This document shows, piece after piece, positions 11,062 through 42,526 of a stretch of 64,000 bases of DNA. Numbering within the stretch: position 1 is the first letter of the stretch; each line of letters opens with the position of its first letter. Origin of the DNA: Chthoniobacterales bacterium (GTDB taxonomy: Bacteria; Verrucomicrobiota; Verrucomicrobiia; Chthoniobacterales; Chthoniobacteraceae); NCBI GenBank assembly GCA_038207335.1, contig JBBQZX010000001.1:1-64000 (forward strand). Reading direction: 5' to 3'. Both the position numbers and the translations under genes were made by a program. The notes below the pieces were generated by a model. It ran no database searches. It saw only the letters and a list, made by a program, of their open reading frames with translations, and was not told the origin of the DNA.

Positions 11062-11724
11062 TTACAGCGGCCCTGATTCCACGAAGCGCACCGCTTGGCG
11101 GATCATCTCGGCGCTGGTCGTGAAGTTGAGCTTTTCCTTGATGTGGTCGCGATGCACCGAAACGGTTTTCGGGCTGAGATTGAGCTGCGCGGCGATCTCT
11201 TTTGCAGTCTTGCCTTCACCGAAAAGGCGGAACACTTCGAACTCGCGGTCGCTCAGTTTTTCCAGCGGCGAATTGCTCCCGCGAGGGCGCGCGGCCGCGA
11301 AGGATGCGAGTACTCGCGCGGCGAGATCTTCACTCAAATACACCTGCCCGCCGAGCACGCATCGGATCGCGGCGAGAAAGGTCGGGCCGTCCGCATCTTT
11401 CATCACGTAGCCCTTCGCGCCGGCTCGCAGTGCGCGCTCGGCGTAGAGCGTTTCGTCATGCATTGAGCAGACGAGAATCTTCAAGCCGGGCTGGATCGCG
11501 GCGAGGTCTTTGATCAGGTCGAGGCCGCCGCGGCCCGCCATCGTGAGATCCGTGACCAGGAGGTCCGGCCGCGCGCACTGGACGGCTTCTAGAGCCTCGG
11601 CCGCGCTCGTGGCAGTCGCGCAGACGGCTAGGCCGGGCGCGGCATCGAGCAGCAGCCGGTATCCGTCGAGCACCATCCGGTGGTCCTCCACGAGCAGGAT
11701 TAGCGAGTTCGGCTCGTCGCTCAT
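11062..11724 (-). CDS. NarL/LuxR-family response regulator
   Basis: LLVEDH...VTDLTM receiver and LSDREFEVF...LSPKTVSVHR HTH. Start ATG 11724 overlaps the kinase stop (ATGA). Confidence 0.95.
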   Translation of the reverse strand: MSDEPNSLILLVEDHRMVLDGYRLLLDAAPGLAVCATATSAAEALEAVQCARPDLLVTDLTMAGRGGLDLIKDLAAIQPGLKILVCSMHDETLYAERALRAGAKGYVMKDADGPTFLAAIRCVLGGQVYLSEDLAARVLASFAAARPRGSNSPLEKLSDREFEVFRLFGEGKTAKEIAAQLNLSPKTVSVHRDHIKEKLNFTTSAEMIRQAVRFVESGPL

Positions 11725-13097
11725 GCAGGCAGCTTCACGCGGCATCGGATACGCGTCCCGCCGGCGGGCGGCGAGCCGATTTCCAGCGCGCCGCCGATGA
11801 GCTGAGCGCGGTGTCGCATCGCGCGCAGACCGATGCCGCGCGTCGGCGGGGCATCGTCGGAAATGCCGTCGCCGTCGTCTTCCACCTCGAGCATCAGCAC
11901 GCCGCTTTGTTGTTCGAAGCCGACGCGGATTTCCGCAGGCGCGGCATGCTTGAGCGCGTTCGTTACCGCCTCCTGCGCGATGCGAAAAAGATGTCCTGCA
12001 GTCTCCGCATCGACTGGGCGCATCGGCTCCTCGCACTCGAAGATGCAGCGCAGCCCCGAGCTGAGAGCGGTCGCCTCGCAGAGCCGCTTCAGCGCGTATC
12101 GGAGCGCATCGTCCTCGAGCGCGACGGGGGCGAGTCCGTGGGAAAGCGCGCGCACTTCGGCCATCGTTTCACGCAGTTGACGCCCGAGATTTTCCGCCTG
12201 CGCAGCTAGCTGTGGAGCGGTCGGAGTCAGTGCGACGACGAGTCCATTCGTGGCGAGCGAAGCCGCGGTGAGCTGCTGTCCTACGCCATCGTGAAGGTCT
12301 GTGCCGATGCGCCGCCGCTCGCGCTCCGAGCTCTCCAAAATCTCGCGTTCCAGCCGAAGCCGCTCCGCATCGCGCTCCTCCAGTCGCACCGACATCTCCG
12401 AAAATGCGACGGACAAATTTCGCACTTCGTCGCCGCCGGGAATCGCATCGATGCGGCTCGCGCGGCCTTCGCCGAAGTCGCGCACCGCCCGCGCGAGCCG
12501 CTCGAGGCGCAGCGTGAAGCCGAAGTGCAGCGCGGCCCACAGGCAGAAGCAGAGCAGCGCAATTGCGGAAGCGACCCAGCGCAATTGGCGCCGCGCGTCG
12601 GTGCGTGCTTGCGCTGCGGCATCCGCGCGATCGAAGCCGACTAGCATCCAGCCCGTGCCGCGCACACCCATCGCCACCGGATATGCGCCAAAGACGCGCG
12701 CCTCATCCGCGCGCTGCGTTTCGTCCGCGCCGGGATCCCGTGCGATCACCATCGCTGGCGCGAGCAACGTCTCGCTCGCCTCGCGGCCCTGAAGTTGGTT
12801 TTCCGAGTCCGCAATCACGATGCCGGATGGGTCCACGAGCGTGGCGAAAGTGAGCCACGGTTCGTCCGCCCAAGCCGCCAAATCCTCCGCGGCTCTCTGC
12901 GTCTCGTCGTTCGCGAAACGGTACTCACACAGCGTTGCGAGGCGGTGGCCGGTTGCTTCGGCCTGCGCAGCGACGTCGTCGAAATTGCGCGCAAGATCGT
13001 TGGCTAGGTTGAGTTCATAATCGAACCACGTGGCCGCAAGGCCGAAAATCAGGACGAGCAGCGGCGCGTAATATCTGGCGGGTGGCGGGAAGCACAT
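11721..13097 (-). CDS. NarX-like sensor kinase (HAMP, HisKA_3, HATPase)
   Basis: ERRRIGTDLHDGVGQ, FRIAQEAVTNALKHA, EDDGDG, GIGLRAM. Confidence 0.93.
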   Translation of the reverse strand: MCFPPPARYYAPLLVLIFGLAATWFDYELNLANDLARNFDDVAAQAEATGHRLATLCEYRFANDETQRAAEDLAAWADEPWLTFATLVDPSGIVIADSENQLQGREASETLLAPAMVIARDPGADETQRADEARVFGAYPVAMGVRGTGWMLVGFDRADAAAQARTDARRQLRWVASAIALLCFCLWAALHFGFTLRLERLARAVRDFGEGRASRIDAIPGGDEVRNLSVAFSEMSVRLEERDAERLRLEREILESSERERRRIGTDLHDGVGQQLTAASLATNGLVVALTPTAPQLAAQAENLGRQLRETMAEVRALSHGLAPVALEDDALRYALKRLCEATALSSGLRCIFECEEPMRPVDAETAGHLFRIAQEAVTNALKHAAPAEIRVGFEQQSGVLMLEVEDDGDGISDDAPPTRGIGLRAMRHRAQLIGGALEIGSPPAGGTRIRCRVKLPA

Positions 13098-13100
13098 GGT

Positions 13101-14123
13101 CTAACGAGAGAGTGCAAGACCGGCGTAGAAATCAACGTATCGGCGGATGAGCGCGGGCCATGCAAACTCGGAATGCGTCCAGTGCGAGAGCGTGGCGCGC
13201 GCGGCGGCATCGGCGCGATCGTCCTGAAAGAAGCGGGTGAGTGCGGAGCGGATGCTTTCGAGCGTCGGATCGCACAGGTAGGCGTGCTGGTCGGCGAGAT
13301 AATCGGCCCACGGAGTCGCGGTCGTGGTGAGCGCGGGAGTGCCGACCTGACAGGCTTCGAGGACTGCGAGGCCGAAGTTTTCGGAGTGGCTCGGGAGACA
13401 GAAAAGATCGGCGGCTTGAAAATATTTCCAGCGCCCGACGCCCCAAATTTCGCCGAGCCAATCGACGCGCGGCAGGCGCGCTGCGAGATCGGCAGCAAGC
13501 GCTTTCAGGCCATCGACGCAGGCTGCCTCTCCGCCGCCGACGATGACGAGTCGCGTGGCCGGAGGCAGCGTGATCGTGGCCAGCGCGCGGAGCAGGAGAT
13601 CGAGACCTTTCTTTTCGTGGATTCGTGAGAGGAAAAGCAGCACGCGCTCCTCCGCGCGCCAGCCGAGAGCAGCGCGCGCGGCTTCGCAATCCGGTCCTGC
13701 ATCGCCGAGCAATCCGAGCGGCAGCGACGCGGAGCGCTGGCCGGGAATCATTTGCCGGAGCCGATCCGCTTCGGGTTCCGCGGTTGCGAGGAGGGCGGCG
13801 GCGCGTGACAGGAAGCGCTTTTCGACGAGATGAAAATAGGGCCACTTTTTCCACCAGCGATGCCGCCACGCCCACTCCTCCAACATTCCGTGCGGCGAGA
13901 CGACATACGGGATTCTGCGCCGCCGACATTCGCGCGCGATCGGCAGAAACGCTGGCTGCCAGAGGCCGTGAAAATGGACGACGTGCGCGCCGCCATCGTC
14001 GTCGGGAAGCCGGTCATCGACCTCGACGCCGGTCGCGCGTAGCGCGACGCGGAGGCTATGGATCGCGGCGTCGATGCCGCCGACTCGCTGCGCGGGAGGG
14101 GGCTCGAAAAAGTGGAGTTTCAT
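13101..14123 (-). CDS. GT4 glycosyltransferase
   Basis: SPHGML, LSRIHEKKG, ENFGLAVLEA (Ex7E). Confidence 0.92.
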   Translation of the reverse strand: MKLHFFEPPPAQRVGGIDAAIHSLRVALRATGVEVDDRLPDDDGGAHVVHFHGLWQPAFLPIARECRRRRIPYVVSPHGMLEEWAWRHRWWKKWPYFHLVEKRFLSRAAALLATAEPEADRLRQMIPGQRSASLPLGLLGDAGPDCEAARAALGWRAEERVLLFLSRIHEKKGLDLLLRALATITLPPATRLVIVGGGEAACVDGLKALAADLAARLPRVDWLGEIWGVGRWKYFQAADLFCLPSHSENFGLAVLEACQVGTPALTTTATPWADYLADQHAYLCDPTLESIRSALTRFFQDDRADAAARATLSHWTHSEFAWPALIRRYVDFYAGLALSR

Positions 14124-15277
14124 CGTGAGGCGGCGTCGCTCGCCTCGCGATAGAGCGCCTCGTAGCTCGCCGCCATCTTCTCGAATGAATACTCGTCCTG
14201 CGCCAATGCGCGCGCCGCCGCGCCGCGCTCGGCGAGCGTTTTTCTGTCGGTGATCTCCGCGAGCCAGCGAGCGTCCGCGCTGACGGAGATCGAGTTGCTG
14301 GAGTTAAGGAACGGCATCTCGGCGAGCAGGTTTTCCGTGATCGCGCACGGCAGCGCGGCAGACATCGCTTCGAGGATCGCGAGCGGGAGGCCTTCAAAGT
14401 CGGCGGTGTGGAGAAACACATCGGCCGCGAGCAGGAGCGATGGCACGTCGGCCTGCCACGCGAGCCGTGTGATCGTCCCGGAAAGCCTGCTGGCGTTGAC
14501 TTCACGGTCCCAACTCTCCGCGAGCGCACCATCGCCGATCCAAAGAATCCGCGCGCTAGGATACGCTGTGAGAAGACGTTTCGCGTGTTCGAGGAAGAGG
14601 AGGGGACGCTTTTGCGGGACCATGCGGCCGACTCCGATGACGACCAGCGCGGTGGCGTCGATGCCGAGTTCCGCGCGCTTCGCCACGCGGACGGCAGCGC
14701 GTTGGGATAGGTCGAAAAGCGGTACACCGTTCGCGATGGTGCGGAGCCGCGGGGAATCGCCGAGGAACGCTGCGAGATCGTCGCGGCGCTGCGCAAGGAC
14801 GCTGATGAGCATGCCCGAGTACGCGTTCAACGCGCGGCGGGAAACGAGATCGCGCGGCGCGGCGAAACGAGCGCGGAGGTATCGCGCGGATTGCGTGAGA
14901 TGAATCGTGCAGAGGCTCGGAATTCCCGCGAGTCGCAGGGCGTGCAGGAGGTCGAGCCCGTCCTCGAGATTCTGTTTGTTCAGGTGGATGAAATCGAATC
15001 CGCCGCGCCGCCAATCGTCGGAAACTCGCCGCGCGGTCTGTAGGTCGAATGCGCTGGCGATCGAGCGCCCGAGCCGATCGTAGGTGTTTGTGTAGTTGGC
15101 GCGGATGGTTTTGCCGATGTTGGAAAAGGAGGCGCAGAGCTCGTCCATCCGCGGATGGGACGAAGCCCACAGCGCGACTTCGTGGCCGCGTGTGGTGAGG
15201 GCGCTGGCGAGGTACGGGAGGAAAAGTTCGCCGCCTCCGCGAGAGCCGGAACTGCTGCTGACGAGGAGGATTTTCAT
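14120..15277 (-). CDS. GT4 glycosyltransferase
   Basis: RGGGE N-terminus, GRMVPQKR, EGLPLAILEAM. Start set at MKILLV (15277). Confidence 0.9.
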   Translation of the reverse strand: MKILLVSSSSGSRGGGELFLPYLASALTTRGHEVALWASSHPRMDELCASFSNIGKTIRANYTNTYDRLGRSIASAFDLQTARRVSDDWRRGGFDFIHLNKQNLEDGLDLLHALRLAGIPSLCTIHLTQSARYLRARFAAPRDLVSRRALNAYSGMLISVLAQRRDDLAAFLGDSPRLRTIANGVPLFDLSQRAAVRVAKRAELGIDATALVVIGVGRMVPQKRPLLFLEHAKRLLTAYPSARILWIGDGALAESWDREVNASRLSGTITRLAWQADVPSLLLAADVFLHTADFEGLPLAILEAMSAALPCAITENLLAEMPFLNSSNSISVSADARWLAEITDRKTLAERGAAARALAQDEYSFEKMAASYEALYREASDAASR

Positions 15278-16329
15278 CTGGCCAAAACCGTTTCGATTGC
15301 CTCCACCCATTTCGCCGCACCCGCCTCCGGTGTCCATGAATCCGCTTTCCGACGGGACGCATCGCCCCAATCGGCGAGGCGCGCCCGATTGTCGATGCAG
15401 CGCCGCATCGCGGCTGCGAGGGCGGCGATGTCGCCGGCAGGAAAGGTGAGTCCATTCACCTCTGGCTCGACGAGATCGTGCGCCGCGCCGACGGCCTCGG
15501 AGCAGAGGATCGGCAACCCAGCGCCAAGTGCCTGGTTCACGACCACGCCCCAGCCGTCATGCCGGCTCGGGAGCACAAAAACGTCGGCTTTTGAAAAAAA
15601 GCTTGCAAGGTCGCGCGGTGACTGAAAACCCACAAACTCAATGCGGGAGAGGGTTTCCGAGCGCAGCCTTGCAAAGAGCGATGGCAAATCCGCCTCCCGT
15701 CCGACGAGCAGGAGTCGGGCGTGCTCGAGCGGCTCGAATGCTGCGAGGAGCAGGTCGATTCCTTTGCGCGCGATCATTTGCCCGCAAAATAGAAACGTGA
15801 CGAACTCGCGCGGAGGCGGTCGCGGCGCGGTAAGGAATGGGGCGAGATCGCAGTGATAGGGGATGCAAAAGTTGCGGGGCTCTGGAAAGCGCCGGCGGTA
15901 TGCGCCCTGCGCGACCGTGCCGATCGCGGCGATGCCATCGGCGCGATGCACGGGCGCGCTCAGCATGTCGTGCAGGTGACCGCATCCGGTGAGTCGCTCG
16001 CCCCAGAATATCCACGGCAGCGTGCGCAGCCTCGCACGCATGATCCACTGCGCCGTGAGCGACATGAGTGTGTTCATCACGACGATGTCGAAGCGGCGCA
16101 AATCAGGCGGCAAGTTGAGATGCACGCGCGCGCCGCCGAGTTGCAGCCATGTGCCTCGCAAAATGGATTCCCAGCTCGCAAGCGGTTCCGACGGCCAGGG
16201 CGAATCGGGCGATTCGCGCTCGAGATAATACACGCGTAGATCGACTTCCGGCCGCTCTGCGAGCGCGCGAAAGAGATCGCGCTGATACGGCGACGGGACG
16301 ACGGAAACGAACGCGACGCGGATGCTCAC
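15274..16329 (-). CDS. GT4 glycosyltransferase
   Basis: PSPYQ, GQMIARKG, DGWGVVVNQAL. Start set at GTG 16329; the longer 889-aa ORF call overlaps the next gene. Confidence 0.88.
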   Translation of the reverse strand: MSIRVAFVSVVPSPYQRDLFRALAERPEVDLRVYYLERESPDSPWPSEPLASWESILRGTWLQLGGARVHLNLPPDLRRFDIVVMNTLMSLTAQWIMRARLRTLPWIFWGERLTGCGHLHDMLSAPVHRADGIAAIGTVAQGAYRRRFPEPRNFCIPYHCDLAPFLTAPRPPPREFVTFLFCGQMIARKGIDLLLAAFEPLEHARLLLVGREADLPSLFARLRSETLSRIEFVGFQSPRDLASFFSKADVFVLPSRHDGWGVVVNQALGAGLPILCSEAVGAAHDLVEPEVNGLTFPAGDIAALAAAMRRCIDNRARLADWGDASRRKADSWTPEAGAAKWVEAIETVLAR

Positions 16330-16343
16330 TTGCGTGCCGCGGA

Positions 16344-17918
16344 TCAAGGCCGGCGCTGGGGCGCGGGAGTTTTTGGAGCGGGCCGCAGGGTTGCGTAGCG
16401 CGGCTTGGCGGGATGGGGATGCAGGATTTTGCGCGTGAGCTTGCTCACGCCGGCGCCCGCCTTTGGAAGAGCGTAATAGGCGACGAAAATGCACGCACCG
16501 ACCGGCAGGAGCGATGTCGTGAAGGCAAACATGCTGCGCATTGTGATTACGGCGGCGAGGAAACCGGTGGCATAAATGAGGATGCCGACTTCGGAGTTTC
16601 GCGAAGAGGCAAAGTGATTCCACCAGCCGGCGAACGCGCCGAGTGCGAGTGCAATCCCGATGACTCCGACAAAGCCGCCCGAAATGTAAGCTTCGCCCGC
16701 AAATGTAACCGCGATGGTGACAGTTCCATGAAAGCCCATGATGTCTTCGATCGAAATCGACATGCCGACCGGCTTGCCCGGCCACAGAAAGCGCGGGACT
16801 GGTCGGATGACGGCGAGATACGGGATTTCGATCCCGAGATAGTTGTGCTGCGAGGGGAAGAACGAGGCGACGGAAGCCATGTTCAGCAAGTTGTAATCGA
16901 CGAATACGTACTCGCGCTGCAGCTCGCCGGAGTAATCCTCGCGCTCGCCCTCCAGCCAGCGCGTGAGGCCCATCGAGCGGAACTGCAACATAAAGTGCGT
17001 GGCGATCACCATCGCGGCAGCGACCGCGCCCGCGGTGAGCACCAGCCGCAAGCGCTTTTGAGGCGGTGTGGCAAAGCCGAAACCGACGAGAAAATTCACG
17101 AGATACGTGCCAAAGAGATTTCGTGTGCCGCTGGCGAAGCCGTAAAAAAACGTGAAGAGCACGATGGCTGCGACGGGCACTAGCTTGAAAAGCGAGTAGC
17201 GCTCGTAGCGTGCGAGCATCGCTCCGCCGAGCGCGGGGATTAGGAAGATCAAAAGCGACAGTTCGCTGAACGCGGCGCGCCAATCGCCGAGTTGTGCACG
17301 CTGCCAAGGCTGTGAAAAGCGCGGGTCCATCATCGCCTTCGTCATGACCGCCACGTCCCAGCCAGAGCAGGCGAGCATGTAAAAATATCCGAGCGCGACG
17401 GCGATCCAAAATAACGCGAGAAGCCGCCAGATCGGGGCTTCGCGCGTCATAAGCGACTCGAACGGCTGCCGCTTCAAGCGCACGAGGTGGCGCCCGAGCA
17501 TCAAGCCGCCGAACGCGAGATAGACGATGTAAAGCGCGCGCTCGGTCGCGGCGAGGCCGACCATGCCGTCGTAGAGCGGCTGGGGAAATAGGAACTCCCA
17601 GAGCGTGAGGTAATAGTAGGTCGCGAGCGCAAGCATGTCGGCCCGGATGAGGTTTTTCAGGCCGCGCCGCGCGTCGATCAGGACGCCAGCGCCGATGCTG
17701 ACGGCGACACCGATGGCAGCGTTGTGTGCAAGCCCGGAGGCCGACTGGCTCGAGTTCACTATCGCGAGAATCACGAGCCCGAAGATGGAGGCGAACGTTG
17801 CCGCAGGACTCGCGGCCGGTGGCCAGTCGTCTCGCGGCGGCTCCGTTGAGACATCCGGCTGACGACCGCGCCACGGAGGCGGATCGTGACGACGGGTGGG
17901 TTGCGAAAAGGCGTTCAT
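16344..17918 (-). CDS. Multi-TM Wzy-like polysaccharide polymerase
   Basis: About 10 TM segments, SGTRN, a periplasmic loop with RPVPRFLWPGKP, and GEAYISGG. Lies inside the GT operon. Confidence 0.7.
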   Translation of the reverse strand: MNAFSQPTRRHDPPPWRGRQPDVSTEPPRDDWPPAASPAATFASIFGLVILAIVNSSQSASGLAHNAAIGVAVSIGAGVLIDARRGLKNLIRADMLALATYYYLTLWEFLFPQPLYDGMVGLAATERALYIVYLAFGGLMLGRHLVRLKRQPFESLMTREAPIWRLLALFWIAVALGYFYMLACSGWDVAVMTKAMMDPRFSQPWQRAQLGDWRAAFSELSLLIFLIPALGGAMLARYERYSLFKLVPVAAIVLFTFFYGFASGTRNLFGTYLVNFLVGFGFATPPQKRLRLVLTAGAVAAAMVIATHFMLQFRSMGLTRWLEGEREDYSGELQREYVFVDYNLLNMASVASFFPSQHNYLGIEIPYLAVIRPVPRFLWPGKPVGMSISIEDIMGFHGTVTIAVTFAGEAYISGGFVGVIGIALALGAFAGWWNHFASSRNSEVGILIYATGFLAAVITMRSMFAFTTSLLPVGACIFVAYYALPKAGAGVSKLTRKILHPHPAKPRYATLRPAPKTPAPQRRP

Positions 17919-19045
17919 GCGAGGCTTGCCTGGCTGAGCGCAAGAAGCGTGCGCGCAGGATGGGACCAAGGGAAACTTTCCCTCACATCGGGTCGATCCG
18001 CTGCCCACCACGAGAGCTCCTCTTCGAGCGCGTGAGGATCGAGCGCTGGGAAAACCGAGCCGTTCTCGCGATGGCGCACGAGGTCTCTGCCGCCCACGCG
18101 GTCGCTCACGATGCACGGCATCCCGCAACTCAGGGCCTGTGGCACGACGAGGCCAAAGCCCTCCTCGAGAGAGGGGAGCACGAGGACAGAGCCAGTCCGG
18201 AACGCCTCTGCCAGAGCCGATTGCGAGACAGGGCCATGGAAATGGACGGGTGTCGCGCCACGGTAGTCGGCGAAGTCCCGCTCCGCCTCCTCGAGCCGTG
18301 CACCATAAAAATCGACCTGCCAGTCGGAGCGCGCGGCGATTGTCAGCGCATCGAGCAGCGTCTTGATTCCCTTTCTCAATCCTGCCTGCCCCGCGAAGAC
18401 GATTTTGAACCGCTCGCGAGGTGCAGGATTAACTGGAGGATGAAAAATGCGGCTGTCCGCGCCGTACGGCACAACCCAGATTTTTGCGGGTGGGATTCCG
18501 ATGGAGATGAGCTGATCGCGCACGATGGTCGAGGCGGCGCAGTGCCAGTGGGCGAGCGCATATTCCTCATCTTCGCGGGCGAAATATGCGTGGTCGTACG
18601 GGCACACATTACTGAGCCGCAGGCCGACCCGCGCGTACTCGGGCTCCATGATTTTGACCCACTCGCGCACCGGCCCTGTCGCGTGATTCAGCACGGTTTG
18701 CACACCGATTCGCCGCGCCGCACGGAACGACTCCAGACACTGCCCCGGCATCGCGTGAAGAAAATTGCACGACTCGAGATTGCGCGCGACGGCGCGATCA
18801 AAGCCGTGATCCTGCCACAGGAAAAGCGCGCGGGAGCCCGGACGGAACTTCGCGGGAAGCAGCTTCAACATGCCATAAACGAGAGTCGTTCTGAAGCTGT
18901 GAGTCCGCGTGGGTAGAGCACTTTCGGGGGGCAGCTTCCATGTGGGATACCCGGAATGATAACAGCCGAGCGCGTTCAAATCCGCGAGACCTGAGGCGAG
19001 TGGGTGGAGGTGGCACGGGTTGGTTGCGGAAATGGAGATCTTCAT
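17915..19045 (-). CDS. GT4 glycosyltransferase
   Basis: VFAGQAGLRKG, EEGFGLVVPQAL. Start MKISIS (19045). Confidence 0.9.
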   Translation of the reverse strand: MKISISATNPCHLHPLASGLADLNALGCYHSGYPTWKLPPESALPTRTHSFRTTLVYGMLKLLPAKFRPGSRALFLWQDHGFDRAVARNLESCNFLHAMPGQCLESFRAARRIGVQTVLNHATGPVREWVKIMEPEYARVGLRLSNVCPYDHAYFAREDEEYALAHWHCAASTIVRDQLISIGIPPAKIWVVPYGADSRIFHPPVNPAPRERFKIVFAGQAGLRKGIKTLLDALTIAARSDWQVDFYGARLEEAERDFADYRGATPVHFHGPVSQSALAEAFRTGSVLVLPSLEEGFGLVVPQALSCGMPCIVSDRVGGRDLVRHRENGSVFPALDPHALEEELSWWAADRPDVRESFPWSHPARTLLALSQASLA

Positions 19046-19986
19046 CGCGGACCGCCTCCGAATTTCGAGAGCCACTCGGTTTCGTCGTGAATCGGGACGC
19101 GCACGAGATGCATCCAATCGCGATATTTCCGCCACGGAAGCGGATGCCGTTCGGCGAGGCAGCGCGGAACCCCGGCGACACATGCGAGCCACCACTGCGG
19201 CTCGCGCAGCGCCCAGCCGAAGCCGCGCCGACACGCGTACGTAAACTGCCGCGCGGCACGAAAAGCGGCGACCATGAAGAGCTGCGGTGCCGGGCAGCGC
19301 ATGATGACGCTCCAGATTTCGTTGCGGGCGTGGGTCTGATGCATCCTCAGTTCGCTGCGCTGGGCGGAGGAGTAATGATGACGGAACGTGAGGCTTGGCT
19401 CGTAACGAATCTGCCAGCCCGCGCACACGCAGCGTACGGAAAAATCCGGCTCATCGTACGCGATGCGGAATTGTGCGGGATAGCCGCCAAGCTCGATGAA
19501 TACGGACTTGCGGAGCATCGCGGCGCAATCGACATACGTTCCAGCGAGGTGCGTTGCACCAAAATCGGCGGTCGTAAGGCTCACGGGAGTTTCATCCGAT
19601 CGTTGAGAGAATGAGAGGACTGCTAGGCGCGGATGTTTCTCAAAAAACGCAGGGGTTCGAGAGAGGAAATCGCTATCGAGCGGATAGCTGTCGTCGTCGA
19701 GGATCACGATGAGGTCGCTCTCCGCGGCGCGAAACATGGCGTCTCGCGAAGCCGTGGAGCCGCGGGCAACGCCGTTCACCGTTAGTCTCGCCAAGGGAAA
19801 ATGCTCGCGAACAAACTCGGGCGTGCCGTCCGAGCAGCCGTCGGCGGTGATGAGTAGTTCGTCGGGCGCGGGCTCCAGCGCGGCGACGACGGCTAGCGTG
19901 CGTTTCAAATCAGCGAGCCGGTTTCGCGTGGCGATCGTGATGGCGACGCGCAGTCTCGTGCCCGCTGGAGATGCTGTTAGAGCCAT
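19042..19986 (-). CDS. GT2 glycosyltransferase
   Basis: ITIATRNR, ADGCSDGT, ILDDD, YDEPDF. Confidence 0.88.
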   Translation of the reverse strand: MALTASPAGTRLRVAITIATRNRLADLKRTLAVVAALEPAPDELLITADGCSDGTPEFVREHFPLARLTVNGVARGSTASRDAMFRAAESDLIVILDDDSYPLDSDFLSRTPAFFEKHPRLAVLSFSQRSDETPVSLTTADFGATHLAGTYVDCAAMLRKSVFIELGGYPAQFRIAYDEPDFSVRCVCAGWQIRYEPSLTFRHHYSSAQRSELRMHQTHARNEIWSVIMRCPAPQLFMVAAFRAARQFTYACRRGFGWALREPQWWLACVAGVPRCLAERHPLPWRKYRDWMHLVRVPIHDETEWLSKFGGGPR

Positions 19987-20870
19987 GTTCCAGCAAGTTC
20001 GCGCCGCCAGCCTGTCGGGCGGAAGCGCACCAAAAAGAGGGAGACGAAAGCACGATGAAATGCTGTGCGCCAAAGGAGGCGCGGGCCGCGCAGGCCGATG
20101 ATTTCCTGCGCGATTCGCTTTTGATTTGCGAGGCGCGAGCGGCTCAGTGCGAACCGGTTGCGCTTTGCGAGGCTCTCGCAGGGGAAGTGTTCGTACCATG
20201 CAGAACGATGGCAGTAGAGGCGGTGGGTGCGGCCGATGCGCGCGGAGAGATGCACGTCTTCCATGAAGCTGTAGCCGGTGAAGCGCGGAAAGAGTTCGCG
20301 CTGAAAAAGCGGTGTGCGAAAGACTACGCATCCAGAGGGCAGCCATTCGGCTTCGATCAGGTCGCCGGCACCCTCGGTATAGGTCGGCAGGCAGTTGATG
20401 CCGGCACCGAAAAGCCGGCCGCCATAAGTGGGGTCCGCGTATCCAGCTTGCAGGCGGTAATACCACCAAAGCAGCCCGCGCGGTGCGGTGTGCTGCACGC
20501 CTTCGATGCGGCCCGCGACCCCTCCGACCTCTTCCTGAGGATCATCGGAAAATGGCGTGCAAAGCTTTTCAAAACAATCGGCAGGAAGTCGTACATCATC
20601 GTCGAGGAAGGCGATGAGTTGCGTCGAGACGCTCACTGCACCTTGGTTGCGCTGCTTCGCGGCGCTGGGTTCGACCGCGCGTTCGTAATCTAGTGGGAGG
20701 CGGTTGCTGAACGATTCGGCGACAACGCGAGATCGTTCGGACGGTGAGGCATCGACGATGATGACGCGGCTTGCGGAATGGCGCTGAAGCGTGAGCGACT
20801 CGAGAGTGACACGGAGTTCGTCCGGTCGCTCGAGCGTGGCGATGACAATGCTGTACGCGAGCAAACTCAT
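19977..20870 (-). CDS. GT2 glycosyltransferase
   Basis: SIVIATLER, IIVDAS, FLDDD, MEDVHLS. Confidence 0.9.
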   Translation of the reverse strand: MSLLAYSIVIATLERPDELRVTLESLTLQRHSASRVIIVDASPSERSRVVAESFSNRLPLDYERAVEPSAAKQRNQGAVSVSTQLIAFLDDDVRLPADCFEKLCTPFSDDPQEEVGGVAGRIEGVQHTAPRGLLWWYYRLQAGYADPTYGGRLFGAGINCLPTYTEGAGDLIEAEWLPSGCVVFRTPLFQRELFPRFTGYSFMEDVHLSARIGRTHRLYCHRSAWYEHFPCESLAKRNRFALSRSRLANQKRIAQEIIGLRGPRLLWRTAFHRAFVSLFLVRFRPTGWRRELAGTWL

Positions 20871-21796
20871 GGCGTGGTCCGGCGCGTGGCGGCAAGTTTC
20901 TCGGCGGCGGAAAATCCCGCCGTGCGATAGGCGATGCGATAGGCGAGCGGGGCGGCGGGACCAGCGAGGTGGATCATCCCGCGAGCCACACGGGCGGCAT
21001 GATATTCGGCGGCGAGCAGGACGTCTTCCTTTGCGAGAGTGCGCGCCATTTCAAAGCACGCGCGACCGGCGAGCCGCGCGTGGTTTTGAGTCCAGAGACC
21101 ACGCTCCGACAGCCAGCCGTGCAGCTTGTCGATGAGCGCGGTTTTCACCTCGACGACCAGCCGCGAGTCTTTGCGGCAAAGCGTCTGGTCGGACCAAATG
21201 CGATAAACCGCGAGAGCTGAAGGAGCATGCGCCAAGCTCAGTCCGGCTTGGATGGCGCGGAGGTAAAGTTCGTGTTCCTGGCAGCATGGCATTTCTTCGT
21301 TCCACCCGCCGAGCCCCTCCAGCGCTTGTTTCCGCCACAGGCAGCCACCGGTTTGCGGGAGCTGCCACGTGAGCCACTGCGAGAAAATATCCGCCTGCGA
21401 ATCGAGGTCGGCGACCTGTCGTTGCCCGTTTTCGTCGATCAAAACGGCGCTGTAGATCAGGTCAATGCCGAGCCCACCGCCACTCTCTTCAAGCTGCTGA
21501 GAAACTTTCTCCCGCAGCAAAAAGTCGTCGGCGTCGAGATATTGAATCCACTCGCCGCGTGCCGCGCGAAGGATGGCGTTGCGGGCATGATTTGCCCCAC
21601 GATGAGGTGCGTTCACCAGCGTGATTTGGCCTCCGAATTCTCGCAAGATCTCGAGTGAACGGTCCGCGGAGCCGTCATCCGCGACGATCACCTCTACCGC
21701 TTGCCAATTTTGTGCGAGAGCACTTCGGACGCACGTTGCGATCCACGCTTCCGCGTTAAAACAGGGAATGCCAATGGTGACGAGTGGCGGTGTCAT
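20867..21796 (-). CDS. GT2 glycosyltransferase
   Basis: IGIPCFN, ADDGSAD, YLDADD, QEHELYLR. Confidence 0.92.
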   Translation of the reverse strand: MTPPLVTIGIPCFNAEAWIATCVRSALAQNWQAVEVIVADDGSADRSLEILREFGGQITLVNAPHRGANHARNAILRAARGEWIQYLDADDFLLREKVSQQLEESGGGLGIDLIYSAVLIDENGQRQVADLDSQADIFSQWLTWQLPQTGGCLWRKQALEGLGGWNEEMPCCQEHELYLRAIQAGLSLAHAPSALAVYRIWSDQTLCRKDSRLVVEVKTALIDKLHGWLSERGLWTQNHARLAGRACFEMARTLAKEDVLLAAEYHAARVARGMIHLAGPAAPLAYRIAYRTAGFSAAEKLAATRRTTP

Positions 21797-22548
21797 GTGG
21801 GCAATTCGGTGAGTCCGAACTCATTGCGAATGCGGGTTGTGAGCGGGCGAAAGTTGAGAAATTTTCGAAAGAGCATCCGGCGGCTGTACCACTGATGAAG
21901 TGAGGAGGCCGCGAAGTTTTCGCCCGTCGCGGTGTTGTAAATCGAGCCGATGAATGGCAGCGGAGCAAGCGGTGTCCCGCGATGCTTCATTGCGTTCACG
22001 ATGTGAGGATGACCGTTGGAAAGAACCCAAAAATCCGACTCCTCGACGGCGGTGTGCGCGGGCAAATCCTCCGCTTCGCAACGCAAAATATGTGAGGTGC
22101 CGCAGACGAGGTGGAAACCATGCTTTCGCAAAACCCATCGGCTGTGCTGATCGTGAACGTAGCCCGTGTGAAAGTGCCAGCCGTCTTCCGTTCGATGGGC
22201 CTCGACGAATCTCGCAAGCTCTCGGCTCACACAATCGTCGGCATCGACGAGCATTAAATGCAGCGGAGCCCACTGCCTCGCATGCACGACCGCACGGAGA
22301 ATTTTGCGGCCCTTGTCGATCATGCGGTCGTCGCGTGAATCGCCGGGGGTTGGAAAATCATCCTCAATGATTGTTAGCGCCGGATGTGTGAATCCGCCGG
22401 CGGGGCGTTGGTTGCAGACGAGGATCACGCGAAATTCTGCGCACGTCTGCGCGCAGATCGAGCGGAGCGTGCGCTCAGCGAGTCGCGAGACTTTTTGCCA
22501 ATCGCGAGACACGGCGGGGCTTTGCAGCGGGACGACGAAAATCAGCAT
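21793..22548 (-). CDS. GT-A fold (GT2-like) glycosyltransferase
   Basis: TLRSICAQT, MLVDADD, and operon context. Confidence 0.7.
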   Translation of the reverse strand: MLIFVVPLQSPAVSRDWQKVSRLAERTLRSICAQTCAEFRVILVCNQRPAGGFTHPALTIIEDDFPTPGDSRDDRMIDKGRKILRAVVHARQWAPLHLMLVDADDCVSRELARFVEAHRTEDGWHFHTGYVHDQHSRWVLRKHGFHLVCGTSHILRCEAEDLPAHTAVEESDFWVLSNGHPHIVNAMKHRGTPLAPLPFIGSIYNTATGENFAASSLHQWYSRRMLFRKFLNFRPLTTRIRNEFGLTELPT

Positions 22549-27609: not shown

Positions 27610-27620
27610 GGGTTCATCGT

Positions 27621-28556: not shown

Positions 28557-28562
28557 CGGAGA

Positions 28563-29435: not shown

Positions 29436-30091
29436 GAGAGTGCAAAATCGGCGCCGTGATCAACCGCGAGCGCAGCGGCAAATCCATCCGCGGGCTCAAG
29501 CGAAAGCAGCGACCAGCGGTTCGGTTCCACCACGCGAGAACCGTGTGCCAGACCGGTTCCGGCGGCTTTCAACTGTGCCTCGGTCTCGGTCCAGCACTGG
29601 TAAAAGCGCCGCCGCTTTTCGTCTCCAGAAAGAGCGCGAATTTCAGCGGCGTCGGCTTTGGAAAAATGTGCGTCGGCGAGCATCTCGAAATCCAATGTGT
29701 CGCGAGTCCATTCCACGTCCACGCCAATTTCCAGCTGCCGGGCGACGGCGACGAGCATGAGCTCCCGCGAGTGGCTGAGGTTGAAATGCAACCACCTTCC
29801 GGCACCGTCGAGCGTGGGCTTTCCGTTTGGCCCAGCTTTGATCTTGAGCGTGCGCGGGTCGTCTGCGAGATAGGATGCGAGGATCGCGCGGAGGCTTGCA
29901 CGGCCCGCGATGAAGCGGCTCCGGTCTCCATCGAAATGGAAGCGAGCAGCGCGAGTGGCTTCGTCGGTGGACAGAGTTGCGGGATCTGCGATCGCACTTC
30001 GATCGAGCGGGATGCGCCAAAGGTGAACATCCCGACCGCCAAGAGGCGGAGAGTTTTTCGCAGGCTGAAAGTGATGCGAGAGCGGGATCAT
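29414..30091 (-). CDS. Sfp-type 4'-phosphopantetheinyl transferase
   Basis: NGKP, FNLSHS, GVDVE, WTETEAQLKA. ATGA overlap with the synthase stop. Confidence 0.92.
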   Translation of the reverse strand: MIPLSHHFQPAKNSPPLGGRDVHLWRIPLDRSAIADPATLSTDEATRAARFHFDGDRSRFIAGRASLRAILASYLADDPRTLKIKAGPNGKPTLDGAGRWLHFNLSHSRELMLVAVARQLEIGVDVEWTRDTLDFEMLADAHFSKADAAEIRALSGDEKRRRFYQCWTETEAQLKAAGTGLAHGSRVVEPNRWSLLSLEPADGFAAALAVDHGADFALSCWRCAQ

Positions 30092-42000: not shown

Positions 42001-42333
42001 CCCGAGCAAGCCGGCGATCGTCTCGGGCGTGCGATGCGCGAGGATGGCGACGTGCGAACCGGCTTCCGTGCCGCGCGCCCGCAGCAGATGGGCGATCGAA
42101 TCGGAGCGGCGTCCGAGCTGCCGATAGGTGAGGCTTTTCTCCCCGGCGATGATCGCGATGGAGTCGGGGCTCTCCTCCGCACGCGCGCGCACGACTTCAT
42201 GCACCGGAAGACCCGGTGGAAAGGGAAAGCTGGATGTCGATATCTTCGCGGACAAAACGCAGGAGTGGACCGCCTTTAGTTTTCGCGTTTTTTGATGCCA
42301 CGCAACGCCGCGATCGACCCCACTGCCCAGCAT
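30088..42333 (-). CDS. Hybrid NRPS-PKS (4081 aa): A-T-ST-KS-AT-ACP-AMT-LLM-C-A-T-TE
   Basis: A1 YTSGSTGRPKG/NGKIDR (~42210-40785); T1 GGDSL (~40640); sulfotransferase PRSGTT (~40370-39555); KS TACSSS/HGTGT/NIGH (~39515-38240); AT GHSVG/HAFH (~37960-37000); ACP GCDSL (~36760); class III aminotransferase FDEVITGFR/YGKIIGGG (~36380-35190); LLM WLPERHFH (~35085-34070); C (~34030-32760); A2 (~32690-31300); T2 GGHSL (~31120); TE GYCNG (~30960-30090). Exact start codon uncertain. Confidence 0.95.
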   Translation of the reverse strand: MLGSGVDRGVAWHQKTRKLKAVHSCVLSAKISTSSFPFPPGLPVHEVVRARAEESPDSIAIIAGEKSLTYRQLGRRSDSIAHLLRARGTEAGSHVAILAHRTPETIAGLLGILKADCAYVPVDPAYPAGLRSFMLADSGPRFVLTSREFESEFSDGIESIVLDEDYSTVVPATVLSPASLDRTAYVIYTSGSTGRPKGVLVSHANLAHSTRARLEFYANPPARFLLVSSFAFDSSVAGIFWTLCTGGTLVLPAAEEERDPFALAALIGSRAITHLLCLPSLHTLLLRAPGTLASLQTVIVAGENCASSLPGEHAQRLPQAALFNEYGPTETTVWSTACQLLPGAAITIGKPIARTQLCLLDEAGNPVPVGTPGEIHIGGDGVAQGYLNQPALTAERFILQSDGARLYKSGDLARLLSDGNFEFLGRVDRQVKIRGYRIELDAIETVLQTHSTVHTAAVVVRGESQIVAYFSPKSASINDLRALVAAQLPAFMMPSVFAGMDEFPLTPNGKIDRAALPPLTRERPEVATAFTPPRTALEHYLASEWRDALHIDRIGIDDRFFEIGGDSLRAATLVQQLQQRIGEPVFVVAMFEAPTIALLAGYLQKHYPAAIARAFGEDTSATSAHESRVTSSMIERVRASLPTFQPASHAGEPRNRRAIFILAPPRSGTTLLRAMLHRHPGLFTASELRLLGTETLAQSGAFSRDGILRAIAEIKNCDDRQASEILEQCELENLGSGEFYARLLEWIEPRELVEKSPSCTLDPGALRHAEALFENAFYIHLSRHPYEVIRSFEKQRMDRVYLPSAGDLTPRQAGEVVWNIAHRNIADFLATIPPERQSFLRFSDLVADPRSSMEAIFSALGIPFDSAVLDPYRADSATASKAVPASDDPHFHAHRMIDPDAAGGWRGVLRDDFLCGETWRLAATLGYEKPTGDPAARVANEPIAIIGMAGNLPGARDVSAFWENLCAGVESIRPFTADELRASGVESTVLAEPGYVNAGATLDDADRFAASFFGFTPREAELMDPQQRILLECAWEAFEHAGQDVSRSAEPIGVFTGLALNSYLQNNLATRPDIAPHLAEYALTLGNEKDFAPTRIAHKLDLRGPAIGVQTACSSSLVALHLACQSLRSGEIGMALVGGGRIRSPLHSGYVHVEGGIASPDGHCRAFDENARGCVAASGIAAVVLKRLSDAQRDGDHIFSVIKATAINNDGATKAGFTAPSVEGQAEVISRAHAAAGITADTIDYVEAHGTGTALGDPIEIAALTRAFSAASFCRIGSVKTNIGHLDAGAGVAGLIKTALALDRELLPPSLHFHSPNPQIDFANGPFVVNAARTAWPRRNEPRRAGVSSFGIGGTNAHAVLEEAPLSEPSSLSRRSQLLILSAKTAPALDQASINLARHFRENPGLDLADVAHTLQIGRREFQHRRIVVAHDLADAAEALGKRDPHRVFSSVAETSVGDVVFMFPGQGAQFPGMARELFESEPVFRDALLECDALLKPQLDLTVALYSPATTTCEMTDTAVAQPAIFAVEYAMARLWQSWGVQPAAMLGHSVGEFTAACLSGVFSLKDALHLLSGRARLMSEIPAGSMLAVRLSQAELTPHLNRDIELAAVNSPRLCVVSGPTENVATFAREMEARGVASAHLPTSHAFHSRMMEPVLAPFIELARDTRLNAPRIPMFSTLTGNGANFTEPEYWSRQLRETVRFSAAVSKVDTRHILLEVGPGVTLSPLARQSRGGTVISSLGTTREHDQAAMLQALGRLWLAGVPIDWRLHRGAEKRRRVQLPTYPFERERFWIEPGIRDVSAPSALAFTPRPVSPKIAAPEAAPSLGDVRALLHGMSGIPVEKMDPSATLLELGCDSLFLTQFALALRKSFGVAVAFRQLFEELSTIERIAAHVESGTRSKASDRLSTPSAPASPVSEPANHGPFRPILRDASDTLNARQRQHLDSLISRYSALTAKSKLLSQEHRPHFADPRSISGFRPLWKELVYPIVVERSSGSKMWDVDGREYVDFTMGFGTNLLGHSPDFITAAIGAQLARGIEIGPQSPIAGEVARMLCEFSGMDRAAFCNTGSEATVAAARIARTVTGRDRVATCSGYHGINDEFLVRAKKVGGERRTVAIAPGIPDHVAREVLAVEYGAPASLEILRANAHNLAAIFVEPVQSRHPDLQPRDFLHELRRICSESGVVLVFDEVITGFRCHPGGAQAWFGVHADLAAYGKIIGGGMPIGALCGRAQFMDALDGGAWNFGDDSRPDVGVTFFAGTYVRHPLALAASHAMLSHLRDEGGALQERLNARTSALVSDLKGVLPADGPIRVESFGSMFIVKFDPEFAFGGLFFFHLREKGIHAWDNRLLFLSTAHSEADLSALVRAFSESVAEMEAGGFLGARVDDEALEAREGGTSNAEPERCVYQGPQAAAELQFSLYFFGNYPAAHRGDKYDLIIESTRFADANGFVAVWLPERHFHSIGGFSPNPAVLAAALARETSRIQLRAGSVVLPLHHPVRVAEEWSLVDNLSNGRVGISIASGWHPNDFVFAPDAYEQRREICTRSLETIRTLWRGDSISARGGTGNAIDVRLFPMPVQRELPVWLTCVRSESYEAAGTLGLNILAQLQNQSVEDVAGKIAIYRDARARAGHDRGHVTMLLHTFVTGDQAQARELARMPLREYLRSHVEISQKKSASKRGEADVNADDLEFLLDRAVTDYAHEKAFIGTEESCAVLAEKLRAAGVDEVGCLVDFGIDPDAVMASLPALDGLRKRLATASECPETFPLTDAQRGLCLLAETHPDSSRAYNETSALEFRGALDAAKLRAALEAVVARHEALRTTIDAASETQTVHPQVTIEMPVIECHSDATLESAIAEVRAIRFDFAHSPIMDVRLLRLASERHVLLLTFHHILGNGPSYVALFDDLLSIFGGEGRTLRPAIQLSSFAREILQHGQREAERFWRAQFSDRVPPLELPLDRPRPNLLTHRGGRASLTLDADLADALRKSGARHGGSMFTTLLSAFQTLLHRLTGQDDVVVGVPFSDPVRERIGGRELFANTTNTVALRSRLESGTTFADLLASNRRLVLEAHEHQRYFFANLIPLLGLRSDPSRAPIFSVLFNYEIGTYRKSLHELEVELITDSQPFAGLRDTALAELFLNVSEKDGALFLRCDFNTDLFDGKTIERWLGHFRHLLEAIAVDPAAAISALPLLSEEERHRMLVDWNDTARDFPANETIGAQFEKWVVRKPDATALIEGAANISFAELDRRASRVARHLRARGVRAGHFVGLRAERTARFIESVLGIVKAGAAYVPLDPAEPAERAAQMRAGCAWVLDPDAIEDADDLPDSAAADGPAYVLFTSGSTGVPKGVVVPHRAISRLVVNSDFVHFQPDDVVAFASNVCFDAATFEMWGALLNGGTLVVTPQEILLSPPALAVHLAVHRITTLFLTTSLFNQTSNASPSMFAGLRNLVFGGEAADASAVQLVLTHGKPERIVNGYGPTETTTFAVCHAIDNVEGGRVPIGRPIANTSAFIFDGALEPVPIGVAGELFIGGPGVALGYFNAPVLNEECFPETKYGRIYKTGDAAKWLPDGTIEYLGRADQQIKLRGFRIELGEIEAALRSHPEIADAAVTVRRVASGDDRLHAHYSLRGTGAPAEREVRTFLAARLPAHMLPSSFSCLPRLPLTASGKTDRAALAESGFSEPSHGENRTDTPSRRADSRPQTLLQAQIADVWEHLLKRHPIGIHDDFFELGGHSLLAVRMLAQIEQRIGSTLLLPELFAGATIAGIARKLLDRQQQAAAIQPYFAINPDGKKRPFFFLHGDYTGGGFFTRSMAQNADRDRPFYAIHPHGLIGDTPPLTIREMAEERLKVIREIQPHGPYLIGGYCNGALTAYQMACSLEAAGESVAGVMLLMANGSNHAMRHLHWISERLGGEERVRAARFIRWRGHARFLVAVAHSYAQKAREFSRLDVRSQTSALSRKLRRIGRRLFGAGDREPVSRWESHFEQESLGDIFSIAVRYFIPGRFGGKVVLFWPEEEPVNFGDSPTFGWRSAAGEVELVTIPGDHDSSITSVEHAPALASALRDALDAADREIPAK

Positions 42334-42526
42334 GATGTGAATGAAAGAGCAGCGGCGAGGCTAAAAAGGGAAACGCGGGTCATGATTTTTATTGGCGCAA
42401 AATGATGGTGCGCGGATGCTCGCGTGCGCTGCCAGTCGGCGGCGCATTACGATTCATGACGGCATTTTCGCAATCCCGCACTAGCAGCGCGTATGCCATC
42501 CGCCCGAGCGTGGCGGGTACTGGCGC

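Follow-up and report, generated by a model that had tools for sequence, protein, structure and literature searches.

A hybrid peptide-polyketide synthase gene at the head of an O-polysaccharide-type operon in a Chthoniobacterales bacterium

In the ABC-transporter-dependent O-polysaccharide pathway of the Escherichia coli O9a and Klebsiella O12 type, the Wzt ATPase carries a carbohydrate-binding domain. Genes for polyketide synthases (PKSs) alone occur in capsule loci of the KpsMT type, namely rkpA of Sinorhizobium and wcbR of Burkholderia. Here we analyse a stretch of 64,000 nucleotides (the window) from a sediment metagenome-assembled genome (MAG) of a Chthoniobacterales bacterium (assembly GCA_038207335.1, contig JBBQZX010000001.1; G+C content about 62%). 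In the window, a gene for a hybrid nonribosomal peptide synthetase (NRPS)-PKS heads a minus-strand operon (positions 11062-42333) that also encodes a 4'-phosphopantetheinyl transferase (PPTase), the ABC exporter Wzm/Wzt and a series of glycosyltransferases (GTs).

Surface glycoconjugates built by NRPSs and PKSs are known from mycobacteria, where the glycopeptidolipids (GPLs) and phenolic glycolipids (PGLs) carry short glycans and are exported by MmpL proteins; the thioesterase (TE) domain of Pks13, which transfers an acyl chain to trehalose, sets a precedent for transfer from a TE to a sugar. Modules of the order KS-AT-ACP-AMT(-Ox)-C-A-PCP are found in the mycosubtilin/iturin lines of the MycA type and in puwainaphycin-type lines, which start with a fatty-acyl-AMP ligase (FAAL) and make lipopeptides. 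In Vibrio cholerae O1, the tetronate genes VC0248-VC0252 adjoin the O-antigen transport genes VC0246-VC0247 and, according to the accessible part of the source, acylation is apparently required for the polymer to be incorporated into lipopolysaccharide, and its loss may act at the ABC transporter or at the ligase (PMC3441752).

Domain organization of the synthase and its predicted product

The domain order of the window synthase is A1-PCP-ST-KS-AT-ACP-AMT-Ox(LLM)-C-A2-PCP-TE according to Pfam and NCBIfam, ST being a sulfotransferase and AMT an aminotransferase domain; a KR domain is not found by Pfam. The core motifs are intact and include both A3 and both A10 motifs, three carrier serines, the KS cysteine with two histidines, the aminotransferase lysine region and the AT motifs GHSVG and HAFH, which we take to be of the malonyl type. 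Judged from these features, the protein is a bona fide hybrid NRPS-PKS with its own Sfp-type PPTase. One variation is seen in the C domain, where HHILGNG (window positions ~33655-33675, synthase residues 2893-2899) replaces HHxxxDG; the closest relative (L002) shares this variant, and more distant relatives have the canonical aspartate.

The loading domain A1 matches the amino-acid adenylation model TIGR01733, contains the FDxS and GK.DR motifs and has the aspartate and lysine positions of amino-acid-activating enzymes. By sequence it belongs to the amino-acid adenylation domains rather than to the fatty-acyl ligases, a point missed by the preliminary description of the window, which had been made from the letters and open reading frames (ORFs). 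As A1 is of the amino-acid type and no starter C domain is present, the product is expected to be without a lipid part. With the code positions placed from known motifs, the specificity code of A1 reads DSALIAEVWK, and it is identical in ten of 11 verrucomicrobial homologues, with one conservative change in the eleventh; that of A2 reads DAFFVGGTFK. The A-E-V positions of the first code presumably recall the tyrosine code, and we assume the second to be valine-like. Among solved structures, the best matches of A1 are gramicidin synthase A domains, which are uninformative as to the substrate.

The ST domain (residues 659-865) directly follows the loading PCP and lies about 2,950 residues before the TE. 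Its closest counterpart in the PDB is the ST of CurM (PDB entry 4gbm, E = 9e-54), followed by that of OLS (E = 2e-49), and its loop for 3'-phosphoadenosine-5'-phosphosulfate (PAPS) reads PPRSGTT. An adenosine-5'-phosphosulfate kinase is encoded elsewhere in the genome, so that PAPS is likely to be available.

The nucleophile motif of the TE is GGYCNG, with cysteine as the nucleophile. Cysteine is also found at this position in eight of nine verrucomicrobial relatives, spread over two TE subtypes that are about 28% identical, and serine in all seven stand-alone homologues from Bacteroidota. Cysteine TEs occur in enzymes that pass their chain to poor nucleophiles, with SulM and ObiF as examples in the accessible part of the source (PMC11298585). 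No TE of SulM or ObiF is among the PDB sequence matches of the window TE at E <= 0.01, and that of Pks13 is a marginal match (E ~2e-3). From the order of the domains, we predict a small, polar, sulfated product in which an amino acid is followed by a C2 unit, bearing a beta-amine and a hydroxyl, and by a second amino acid.

The glycan operon and its counterparts in Chthoniobacterales

The operon comprises 20 co-directional genes (Table 1). All 19 junctions were inspected and, computed with the most upstream-compatible starts, span -10 to +11 nt: 13 are -4 nt, three are -7, -8 and -10 nt, and three are +3, +6 and +11 nt. The statement in the preliminary description that the genes overlap or lie at most 14 bp apart is therefore borne out, and all 11 of its stop/start pairs are present in the sequence. 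The pair 17915/17918 keeps its coordinates but has to be read in the frame of ORF 16344..18128, whose product is a membrane protein of 524 aa. The 889-aa ORF 15274..17943 on the minus strand is an overlapping-frame artefact in its first ~530 codons, with a third-position G+C content (GC3) of 0.40-0.59 versus 0.74-0.83 in the other frame; the true genes of this region are those of the membrane protein and of a 357-aa GT4 (15274-16347). As a whole, the operon genes have a lower GC3 (0.64-0.77) than several of the genes that flank them (0.75-0.85), which may indicate that the locus has had a different history.

The PPTase-wzm junction is -4 nt (GTG at 29417), and alternative starts reach -22 nt. 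Scans for promoter-like and terminator-like sites gave one and 17 sites in the operon versus 3.0±1.5 and 18.3±4.4 in shuffled sequence in the first scan, and none and 18 versus 2.2±1.8 and 15.4±3.6 in the second; they are a weak, uninformative test, as the sigma-70 consensus on which they rely may not fit this phylum. Under this consensus, neither scan places a promoter or terminator at the PPTase-wzm junction, the spot where one had been named in advance as speaking against a single unit, and no consensus promoter appears in the divergent intergenic region 42334..42526. A look-up of sequencing runs that contain the stretch listed one, a sediment metagenome from which the DNA may itself derive, and no RNA run.

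The assignments of the PPTase, the methyltransferase and the kinase-regulator pair were confirmed by Pfam, as was the position of Wzm/Wzt, whose genes are about 1 kb apart, as the only transporter within the operon. The best NCBIfam matches of Wzt are TagH and galactan Wzt, with a weak match to the DrrA type. The Wzy-like protein rests on the frame analysis, with a match to TIGR04370 (36.1 bits) that stays below the cut-off of 40; it is present although a Wzm/Wzt pathway needs no Wzy. Of the approximately 12 GTs counted in the preliminary description, nine are recognized by Pfam (four GT2 and five GT4). A tenth, the 311-aa protein encoded between wzm and wzt (27621-28556), matches no Pfam or NCBIfam family, and its description as GT-like is supported by a predicted retaining GT-A fold. 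Its model (pLDDT 82, pTM 0.82) is matched in Foldseek by LARGE1, glycogenin and XXYLT1 (E = 2e-8 to 1e-6, TM ~0.5), the HDDGTL and DSD motifs are invariant in an alignment of 12 orthologues, and its atlas neighbours are unnamed clusters, the sole lead being a cluster with GT8 on 10% of its members. The remaining two (23699-24676 and 21793-22548) have DxD-like motifs and no family in Pfam or NCBIfam.

A divergent plus-strand operon, absent from the preliminary description, begins 193 bp upstream of the synthase and encodes an O-acetyltransferase, a GT4, WecA, a WaaL-like ligase and then Fur. With Wzm and Wzt together, the Wzt_C domain and the WecA and WaaL families, features of a Wzm/Wzt pathway are present at the level of family assignment; no WbdD-like kinase or coiled-coil chain terminator is recognized in the operon, which does encode a 244-aa S-adenosylmethionine (SAM)-dependent methyltransferase. 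As far as family assignments can tell, the locus contains the components expected of an undecaprenyl-linked O-polysaccharide system that depends on an ABC transporter.

At least four genera share the order synthase-PPTase-Wzm-Wzt. The ST region, used as a query, found 86 large proteins, many of which share the order A-PCP-ST-KS-AT-ACP-AMT-C-A-PCP(-TE), with the LLM domain only in the closest. A scan based on the ST alignment, with one genome per species, gave 218 relatives, and the best 80 of these 218 were used for the locus analyses. They include eight MAGs of Chthoniobacterales or 'Spartobacteria' with an ST 53-60% identical to that of the window; the rest are mostly Saprospiraceae, with a few Chloroflexota, Actinomycetota, Calditrichota and others (domain maps by tBLASTn). 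A phylum-wide sample of 401 genomes, which proved too sparse, contained one ST match, that of the window's own genome.

In all four close relatives that could be assessed (G401-G404), the best Wzt match is found on the synthase contig, 2-5 kb downstream of the synthase; in a fifth (G405), the contig ends too early. G401 (= G612), which belongs to the genus of the window, keeps 12 operon genes in the window order (Wzm, the GT-A gene, Wzt and nine more; 46-78% identity), and G402-G404 retain PPTase-Wzm-Wzt-...-GT-A with other GTs. The PPTase-wzm junction is between -22 and +21 nt in eight of eight relatives. On the other side of the synthase (loci L002-L009), the acetyltransferase and GT4 genes are present in all eight, WecA in six, and the WaaL-like and Fur genes in five. 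The arrangement extends to genomes of the same family without an ST match: in five of six loci around strong orthologues of the GT-A gene, a PKS-NRPS and a PPTase directly precede Wzm-Wzt, with the divergent acetyltransferase-GT4-WecA(-WaaL-Fur) unit on the other side. In a sample of 301 genomes of the order, 16 genomes of family f1 have a strong GT-A orthologue, and in ten of them, from four genera, the PPTase is at most 7 kb from it on one contig. The other six comprise two without a PPTase match (G584 and G671), three split by contig ends and one with the PPTase elsewhere (G619). Such proximity is found in none of eight compared genomes outside f1. PPTase matches occur in 185 of the 301 genomes, a tally that includes the unpublished G574, used nowhere else.

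Between these flanks (61-74% identity for the acetyltransferase and 46-68% for Wzm), the assembly line itself varies and always terminates in C-A-PCP-TE. The G402 and G403 lines consist of a window-like protein without TE and a C-A-PCP-TE protein, the G577 and G654 lines of C-A-PCP-C-PCP and KS-(AT)-ACP-AMT-C-A-PCP-TE, and the G416 line of DH-like/FkbM-MT/ACP, A, KS-AT-KR-ACP and KS-AT-ACP-C-A-PCP-TE. A variable line between conserved flanks resembles the cassette pattern typical of surface-antigen loci. The ATPase part of the window Wzt is 62-68% identical to that of the relatives, and the C-terminal 171 residues of the protein gave no tblastn match better than E = 0.16 in any of ten relatives, so that this comparison carries no signal either way on co-variation with the synthase or the TE type. 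Locus L099 (G471) has two genes for Wzt-like ATPases (10354-11133 and 13438-14457) downstream of PPTase and Wzm.

The operon closes with a two-component pair joined by ATGA overlaps, and co-transcription would fit co-regulation. One may therefore consider that the product acts inside the cell or in the periplasm to regulate or support the assembly of the glycan, for instance as a signal for the histidine kinase, and that it is never attached to the glycan. We regard this as highly improbable: neither kinase nor regulator was detected downstream in G401, the closest relative, a hypervariable synthase is hard to square with a conserved receptor, and nothing else suggests signalling.

Homologues in other phyla and the possible fate of the product

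Among loci of at least 14 kb with A-PCP-ST-KS from outside Bacteroidota and Verrucomicrobiota (L039, L047, L049, L051, L053, L054 and L061), five of the seven, from Chloroflexota and Actinomycetota, have a Bac_transf phosphoglycosyl transferase gene adjoining the synthase (L039, L047, L049, L051 and L061), surrounded by genes for GT4, GT2, UDP-glucose dehydrogenase or BY-kinase. In three Chloroflexota loci, PPTase, Bac_transf and synthase are consecutive (L039 6711-8083, L047 6692-8022 and L051 6778-8129). The A-PCP-ST-KS-AT-ACP-AMT core is thus found beside glycan-initiating genes under two modes of export, which suggests that the link runs through glycan chemistry rather than through transport. 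The Bac_transf protein of L061 carries a receiver domain. Three Calditrichota loci (L032, L044 and L074) encode pure NRPSs with one or two internal A-PCP-ST modules, and A-PCP-ST therefore seems to be a mobile module that is also used without a PKS part.

The loci L010-L081 (Saprospiraceae and other Bacteroidota) encode a large, apparently uncharacterized family of proteins of ~3,900 aa with the order A-PCP-ST-KS-AT-ACP-AMT-C-A-PCP-TE, each followed by a PPTase and mostly stand-alone, whose A1 codes form two groups, DVL[LM]NSLVNK and DGLLSAQVGK. The PPTase is the only constant partner in Bacteroidota, the other neighbours being unrelated (T9SS cargo, peptidases, regulators). In a subgroup of ten Saprospiraceae loci, a Bac_transf-GT2-GDSL-MBOAT set lies 6-7 kb upstream, with an opposite-strand gene between the set and the synthase. 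The expectation that homologues stay linked to glycan genes consequently holds for Chthoniobacterales (all four close and five of six further loci) and for five of the seven loci from Chloroflexota and Actinomycetota, and fails in four of four Bacteroidota genomes; the opposite expectation, that they usually occur without glycan genes, is realized in part, in these same four genomes, which lack an ABC-2 permease or consistent glycan genes.

What happens to the product was framed in the preliminary description as a choice between aglycone, primer, anchor and substituent of an exported glycan. The first three roles fare poorly. An assembly-line product that is glycosylated and exported by Wzm/Wzt as the aglycone of a secreted or surface glycoside would agree with Wzm/Wzt being the sole transporter in the operon, with the ABC-2 exporters that are found in metabolite clusters and the weak DrrA-type match of Wzt, and with the initial C domain of the G577 and G654 lines; in lipopeptide synthetases, a starter C domain adds a fatty acyl group. 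The window line, however, loads through an amino-acid A domain and has no lipid-loading part, and the syntenic WecA and WaaL-like ligase point to an undecaprenyl-linked polymer. Wzt has Wzt_C and is nearest to TagH and galactan Wzt, and the Wzy-like polymerase with at least ten GTs suggests a polymer rather than a glycoside. In G584, moreover, the operon Wzm-Wzt-GT2-GT-A-...-GT2-GT2-(acetyltransferase)-GT2-GT4-Wzy-like-GT4-GT4 is colinear with the distal half of the window operon at 42-61% identity; its acetyltransferase gene is directly divergent from Wzm with no synthase in between, and the genome (98% complete) has no PPTase match at E 1e-12. The glycan genes can thus stand alone and do not require the synthase, which argues against a product that serves as primer, aglycone or anchor and fits either an optional decoration or an unrelated product. 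We consider the aglycone reading improbable; the role as substituent or cap is still attractive.

A more serious competitor is that two independent pathways share one transcript, the synthase and its PPTase making a diffusible compound, perhaps a sulfated pseudo-dipeptide of the bestatin kind, and their position reflecting only descent from one insertion between divergent promoters. Several observations speak for it and weigh against an attached product. The Bacteroidota homologues examined for exporters (G406, G407, G409 and G410) are stand-alone synthase-PPTase pairs in four of four cases, with no ABC-2 permease near the synthase, which indicates that the synthase family is able to yield a product that is sufficient by itself. 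Genome G408 does not enter this comparison, as its locus L091 had been drawn from the wrong contig. The G584 operon does without the synthase; a search of the locus for an enzyme coupling the product to a sugar found none, and the covalent link would have to be assumed. The C-terminal domain of Wzt does not track the synthase: G401 has a synthase of the same architecture, and its Wzt shows no recognizable resemblance to that of the window in this part. Nor is the GT-A gene specific to the synthase: as a candidate coupling factor it was rejected, its phylogenetic profile not following that of the synthase (91 of 301 genomes of the order versus 20 with an ST match). Finally, the verrucomicrobial cases go back to a single ancestral arrangement and may amount to about one evolutionary event. 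On the other side, the gene order and the tight PPTase-wzm junction were kept in eight of eight relatives despite the synthase having been rebuilt several times, the homologues in other phyla lie beside glycan-initiating genes in five of seven loci, the operon lacks any additional exporter, regulator or tailoring gene of the sort that marks metabolite clusters, and the choice of cysteine versus serine in the TE separates glycan-linked from stand-alone homologues. On balance we hold the free metabolite to be a rather unlikely, if credible, explanation. Were the two pathways independent, the locus would still be a clean case of a metabolite cluster long fixed inside an O-antigen operon.

The reading to which we give an even chance is that the product is an optional substituent or end cap, and not the primer or anchor, of an undecaprenyl-linked glycan before export. 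A1 would load an alpha-amino acid, possibly tyrosine-like, which the CurM-type ST would sulfonate with PAPS while it is bound to PCP1. KS and AT would then add one malonyl unit, AMT would convert the beta-keto group into a beta-amine and the LLM domain would hydroxylate, and C and A2 would append a valine-like residue. The PPTase-primed synthase would in this way build a sulfated peptide-ketide in the cytoplasm. The cysteine-type TE or another transferase would hand the acyl chain over to a hydroxyl or amine group on a sugar of the WecA-primed glycan while this is still in the cytoplasm, as a substituent or a non-reducing-end cap, before Wzm/Wzt exports the polymer and the WaaL-like ligase joins it to the final acceptor. 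Overall the original proposal is partly supported by the genomic comparison, in which synthase and glycan genes appear linked, decoration seems plausible and a role as primer or anchor seems unlikely.

A bolder version, which we think unlikely, can be built on this decoration model. The hypervariable NRPS-PKS cassette could be a generator of O-antigen decorations in soil and sediment Chthoniobacterales, in which the cysteine TE caps the non-reducing end of the glycan and the cap serves as chain terminator and as export tag for the equally hypervariable C-terminal domain of Wzt. The lipopolysaccharide would then belong to a new, assembly-line-capped class, of which the loci with phosphoglycosyl transferases in Chloroflexota would hold parallel versions.

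Apart from this bolder version, if the product of the synthase is on the glycan at all, the locus would encode a kind of surface polymer not yet described, an O-antigen-type glycan with a thiotemplate-built sulfated peptide-polyketide whose natural-product part varies among relatives as serotype genes do, and it would provide the Wzm/Wzt pathway with a candidate, open to testing, for a chain cap or export signal of a new class. The role of NRPS-PKS enzymes would widen from diffusible metabolites to the chemistry of the cell envelope, and it would become understandable why many 'orphan' clusters of uncultured soil phyla give no free compound.

Gene families in the window (Table 1) were assigned by searching the window proteins against Pfam and NCBIfam. 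Outside the operon, the Fur gene is followed by an outer-membrane efflux protein (OEP) and an AcrB-family RND pump (49170-53644, plus strand), a pair that provides no syntenic support for a role in exporting what the synthase makes. Directly downstream of the LuxR-type regulator lies a second two-component pair, a HisKA kinase and a stand-alone receiver (8852-10639, minus strand). A 983-aa ORF (5885-8836, plus strand) has a coding-like GC3 of 0.73 and no Pfam family; its neighbours encode a SASA-type carbohydrate esterase (4246-5835), a Laminin_G_3 protein (3032-4111) and a glucuronyl-esterase-like protein (1738-2991).

Table 1. Features of the synthase operon and of the divergent operon in the window
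Feature	Positions	Strand	Basis
Hybrid NRPS-PKS, 4,081 aa	30088..42333	-	Pfam; NCBIfam TIGR04020 LLM 464 bits (cut-off 244); core motifs
Sfp/HetI-type PPTase	29414..30091	-	Pfam; HetI 172 bits, below cut-off; ATGA overlap with synthase stop
Wzm, ABC-2 permease	28563..29417	-	PF01061 81 bits; weak galactan Wzm/KpsM NCBIfam matches
Predicted GT-A-fold (GT8-like) glycosyltransferase, 311 aa	27621..28556	-	HDDGTL and LDSD motifs; predicted fold
Wzt, ABC ATPase with C-terminal Wzt_C	26299..27609	-	PF00005 77 bits; PF14524 37.2 bits (cut-off 30.4)
GT2 glycosyltransferase	25400..26302	-	Pfam
SAM-dependent methyltransferase, 244 aa	24673..25407	-	Pfam, NCBIfam
Soluble family-less protein, possible GT-A by motif only	23699..24676	-	No hydrophobic segments
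GT4 glycosyltransferase	22542..23702	-	Pfam
Soluble family-less protein, possible GT-A by DADD motif only	21793..22548	-	Sequence
GT2 glycosyltransferase	20867..21796	-	Pfam
GT2 glycosyltransferase	19977..20870	-	Pfam
GT2 glycosyltransferase	19042..19986	-	Pfam
GT4 glycosyltransferase	17915..19045	-	Pfam
Wzy-like polytopic membrane protein, 524 aa	16344..17918	-	9 hydrophobic segments; TIGR04370 36.1 bits, below cut-off 40
GT4 glycosyltransferase	15274..16347	-	Pfam
GT4 glycosyltransferase	14120..15277	-	Pfam
GT4 glycosyltransferase	13101..14123	-	Pfam
Sensor histidine kinase (HAMP, HisKA_3, HATPase_c)	11721..13097	-	Pfam
LuxR/NarL-type response regulator	11062..11724	-	Pfam
Divergent intergenic region, 193 bp, presumed promoter region of both operons	42334..42526	.	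ORF layout
WcaF-family polysaccharide O-acetyltransferase	42527..43069	+	NF007797 220 bits, above cut-off 192
GT4-type glycosyltransferase	43066..44169	+	Pfam
WecA/MraY-family polyprenyl-phosphate HexNAc-1-P transferase	44307..45662	+	PF00953 144 bits; TIGR02380 135 bits, below cut-off
WaaL-like O-antigen ligase family membrane protein (Wzy_C)	45515..48025	+	PF04932 81.7 bits; 11 hydrophobic segments

Comparison with described systems

No NRPS or PKS within a wzm/wzt O-antigen operon, and no synthase with this domain order, was found in the literature covered, which includes few subscription journals. This agrees with the earlier statement that no characterized example with this domain set is known; assembly-line-built surface glycoconjugates as such exist, the mycobacterial glycopeptidolipids among them. 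The pyrazinone synthase CorA was dropped as a relative, the accessible part of the source mentioning neither an aminotransferase nor an ST (PMC13691573).

At the level of the synthase, the KS-AT-ACP-AMT-Ox-C-A-PCP order is that of the MycA and puwainaphycin types and would yield an acyl unit of the beta-amino (alpha-hydroxy) kind, linked to an amino acid. In contrast to initiation in the iturin and mycosubtilin lines, the window line has no FAAL loading domain and begins with the amino-acid domain A1 followed by the ST. This ST resembles those of CurM and OLS in sequence (PDB entries 4gbm and 4gox). It is not part of an ACP-ST-TE off-loading tridomain as in those two enzymes, and the line has no KR to supply a beta-hydroxyl, so that their ST-TE feature is lacking. 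In its position in an NRPS loading part it is similar to the ST of the cyanopeptolin synthetase OciA of Planktothrix, which, according to the accessible part of the source, combines an ST with a loading domain for glyceric acid (PMC2533009); the window starter would be an amino acid and not glyceric acid. Monobactam synthetases of the SulM type are characterized, in the accessible part of the source, by a cysteine TE with Gln-Cys-Asn, a last A domain that activates Dap, and a sulfotransferase (PMC11298585). The window synthase has an ST and a cysteine TE, the latter with Tyr-Cys-Asn, but a last A domain whose code looks Val-like by known codes.

At the level of the locus, the resemblance to the O9a/O12 type covers Wzm, Wzt with Wzt_C, a WecA-family transferase, many cytoplasmic GTs, a methyltransferase and a WaaL-family ligase. 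The window differs from this type in the NRPS-PKS and PPTase at the head of the operon, in its Wzy-like protein and in that no WbdD-like kinase or coiled-coil terminator was recognized. It shares with rkpA and wcbR a PKS-type gene inside a surface-polysaccharide locus. Unlike the mycobacterial GPL and PGL loci, the operon has no FAAL and no MmpL/RND protein, and it combines at least ten GTs with machinery of the O-antigen type.

The closest functional precedent, as far as the accessible part of the source shows, is V. cholerae O1, with dedicated genes for a non-sugar acyl substituent within an O-antigen locus of the wzm/wzt type. The two differ in enzymes and product: small discrete enzymes, probably with an acyl carrier protein and an adenylating enzyme among them, and a C4 acid in V. 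cholerae; a 12-domain megasynthase and a predicted sulfated peptide-ketide in the window. In terms of gene content, the locus would fit a decorated O-polysaccharide or an assembly-line-built glycoconjugate, both of which are known in kind.

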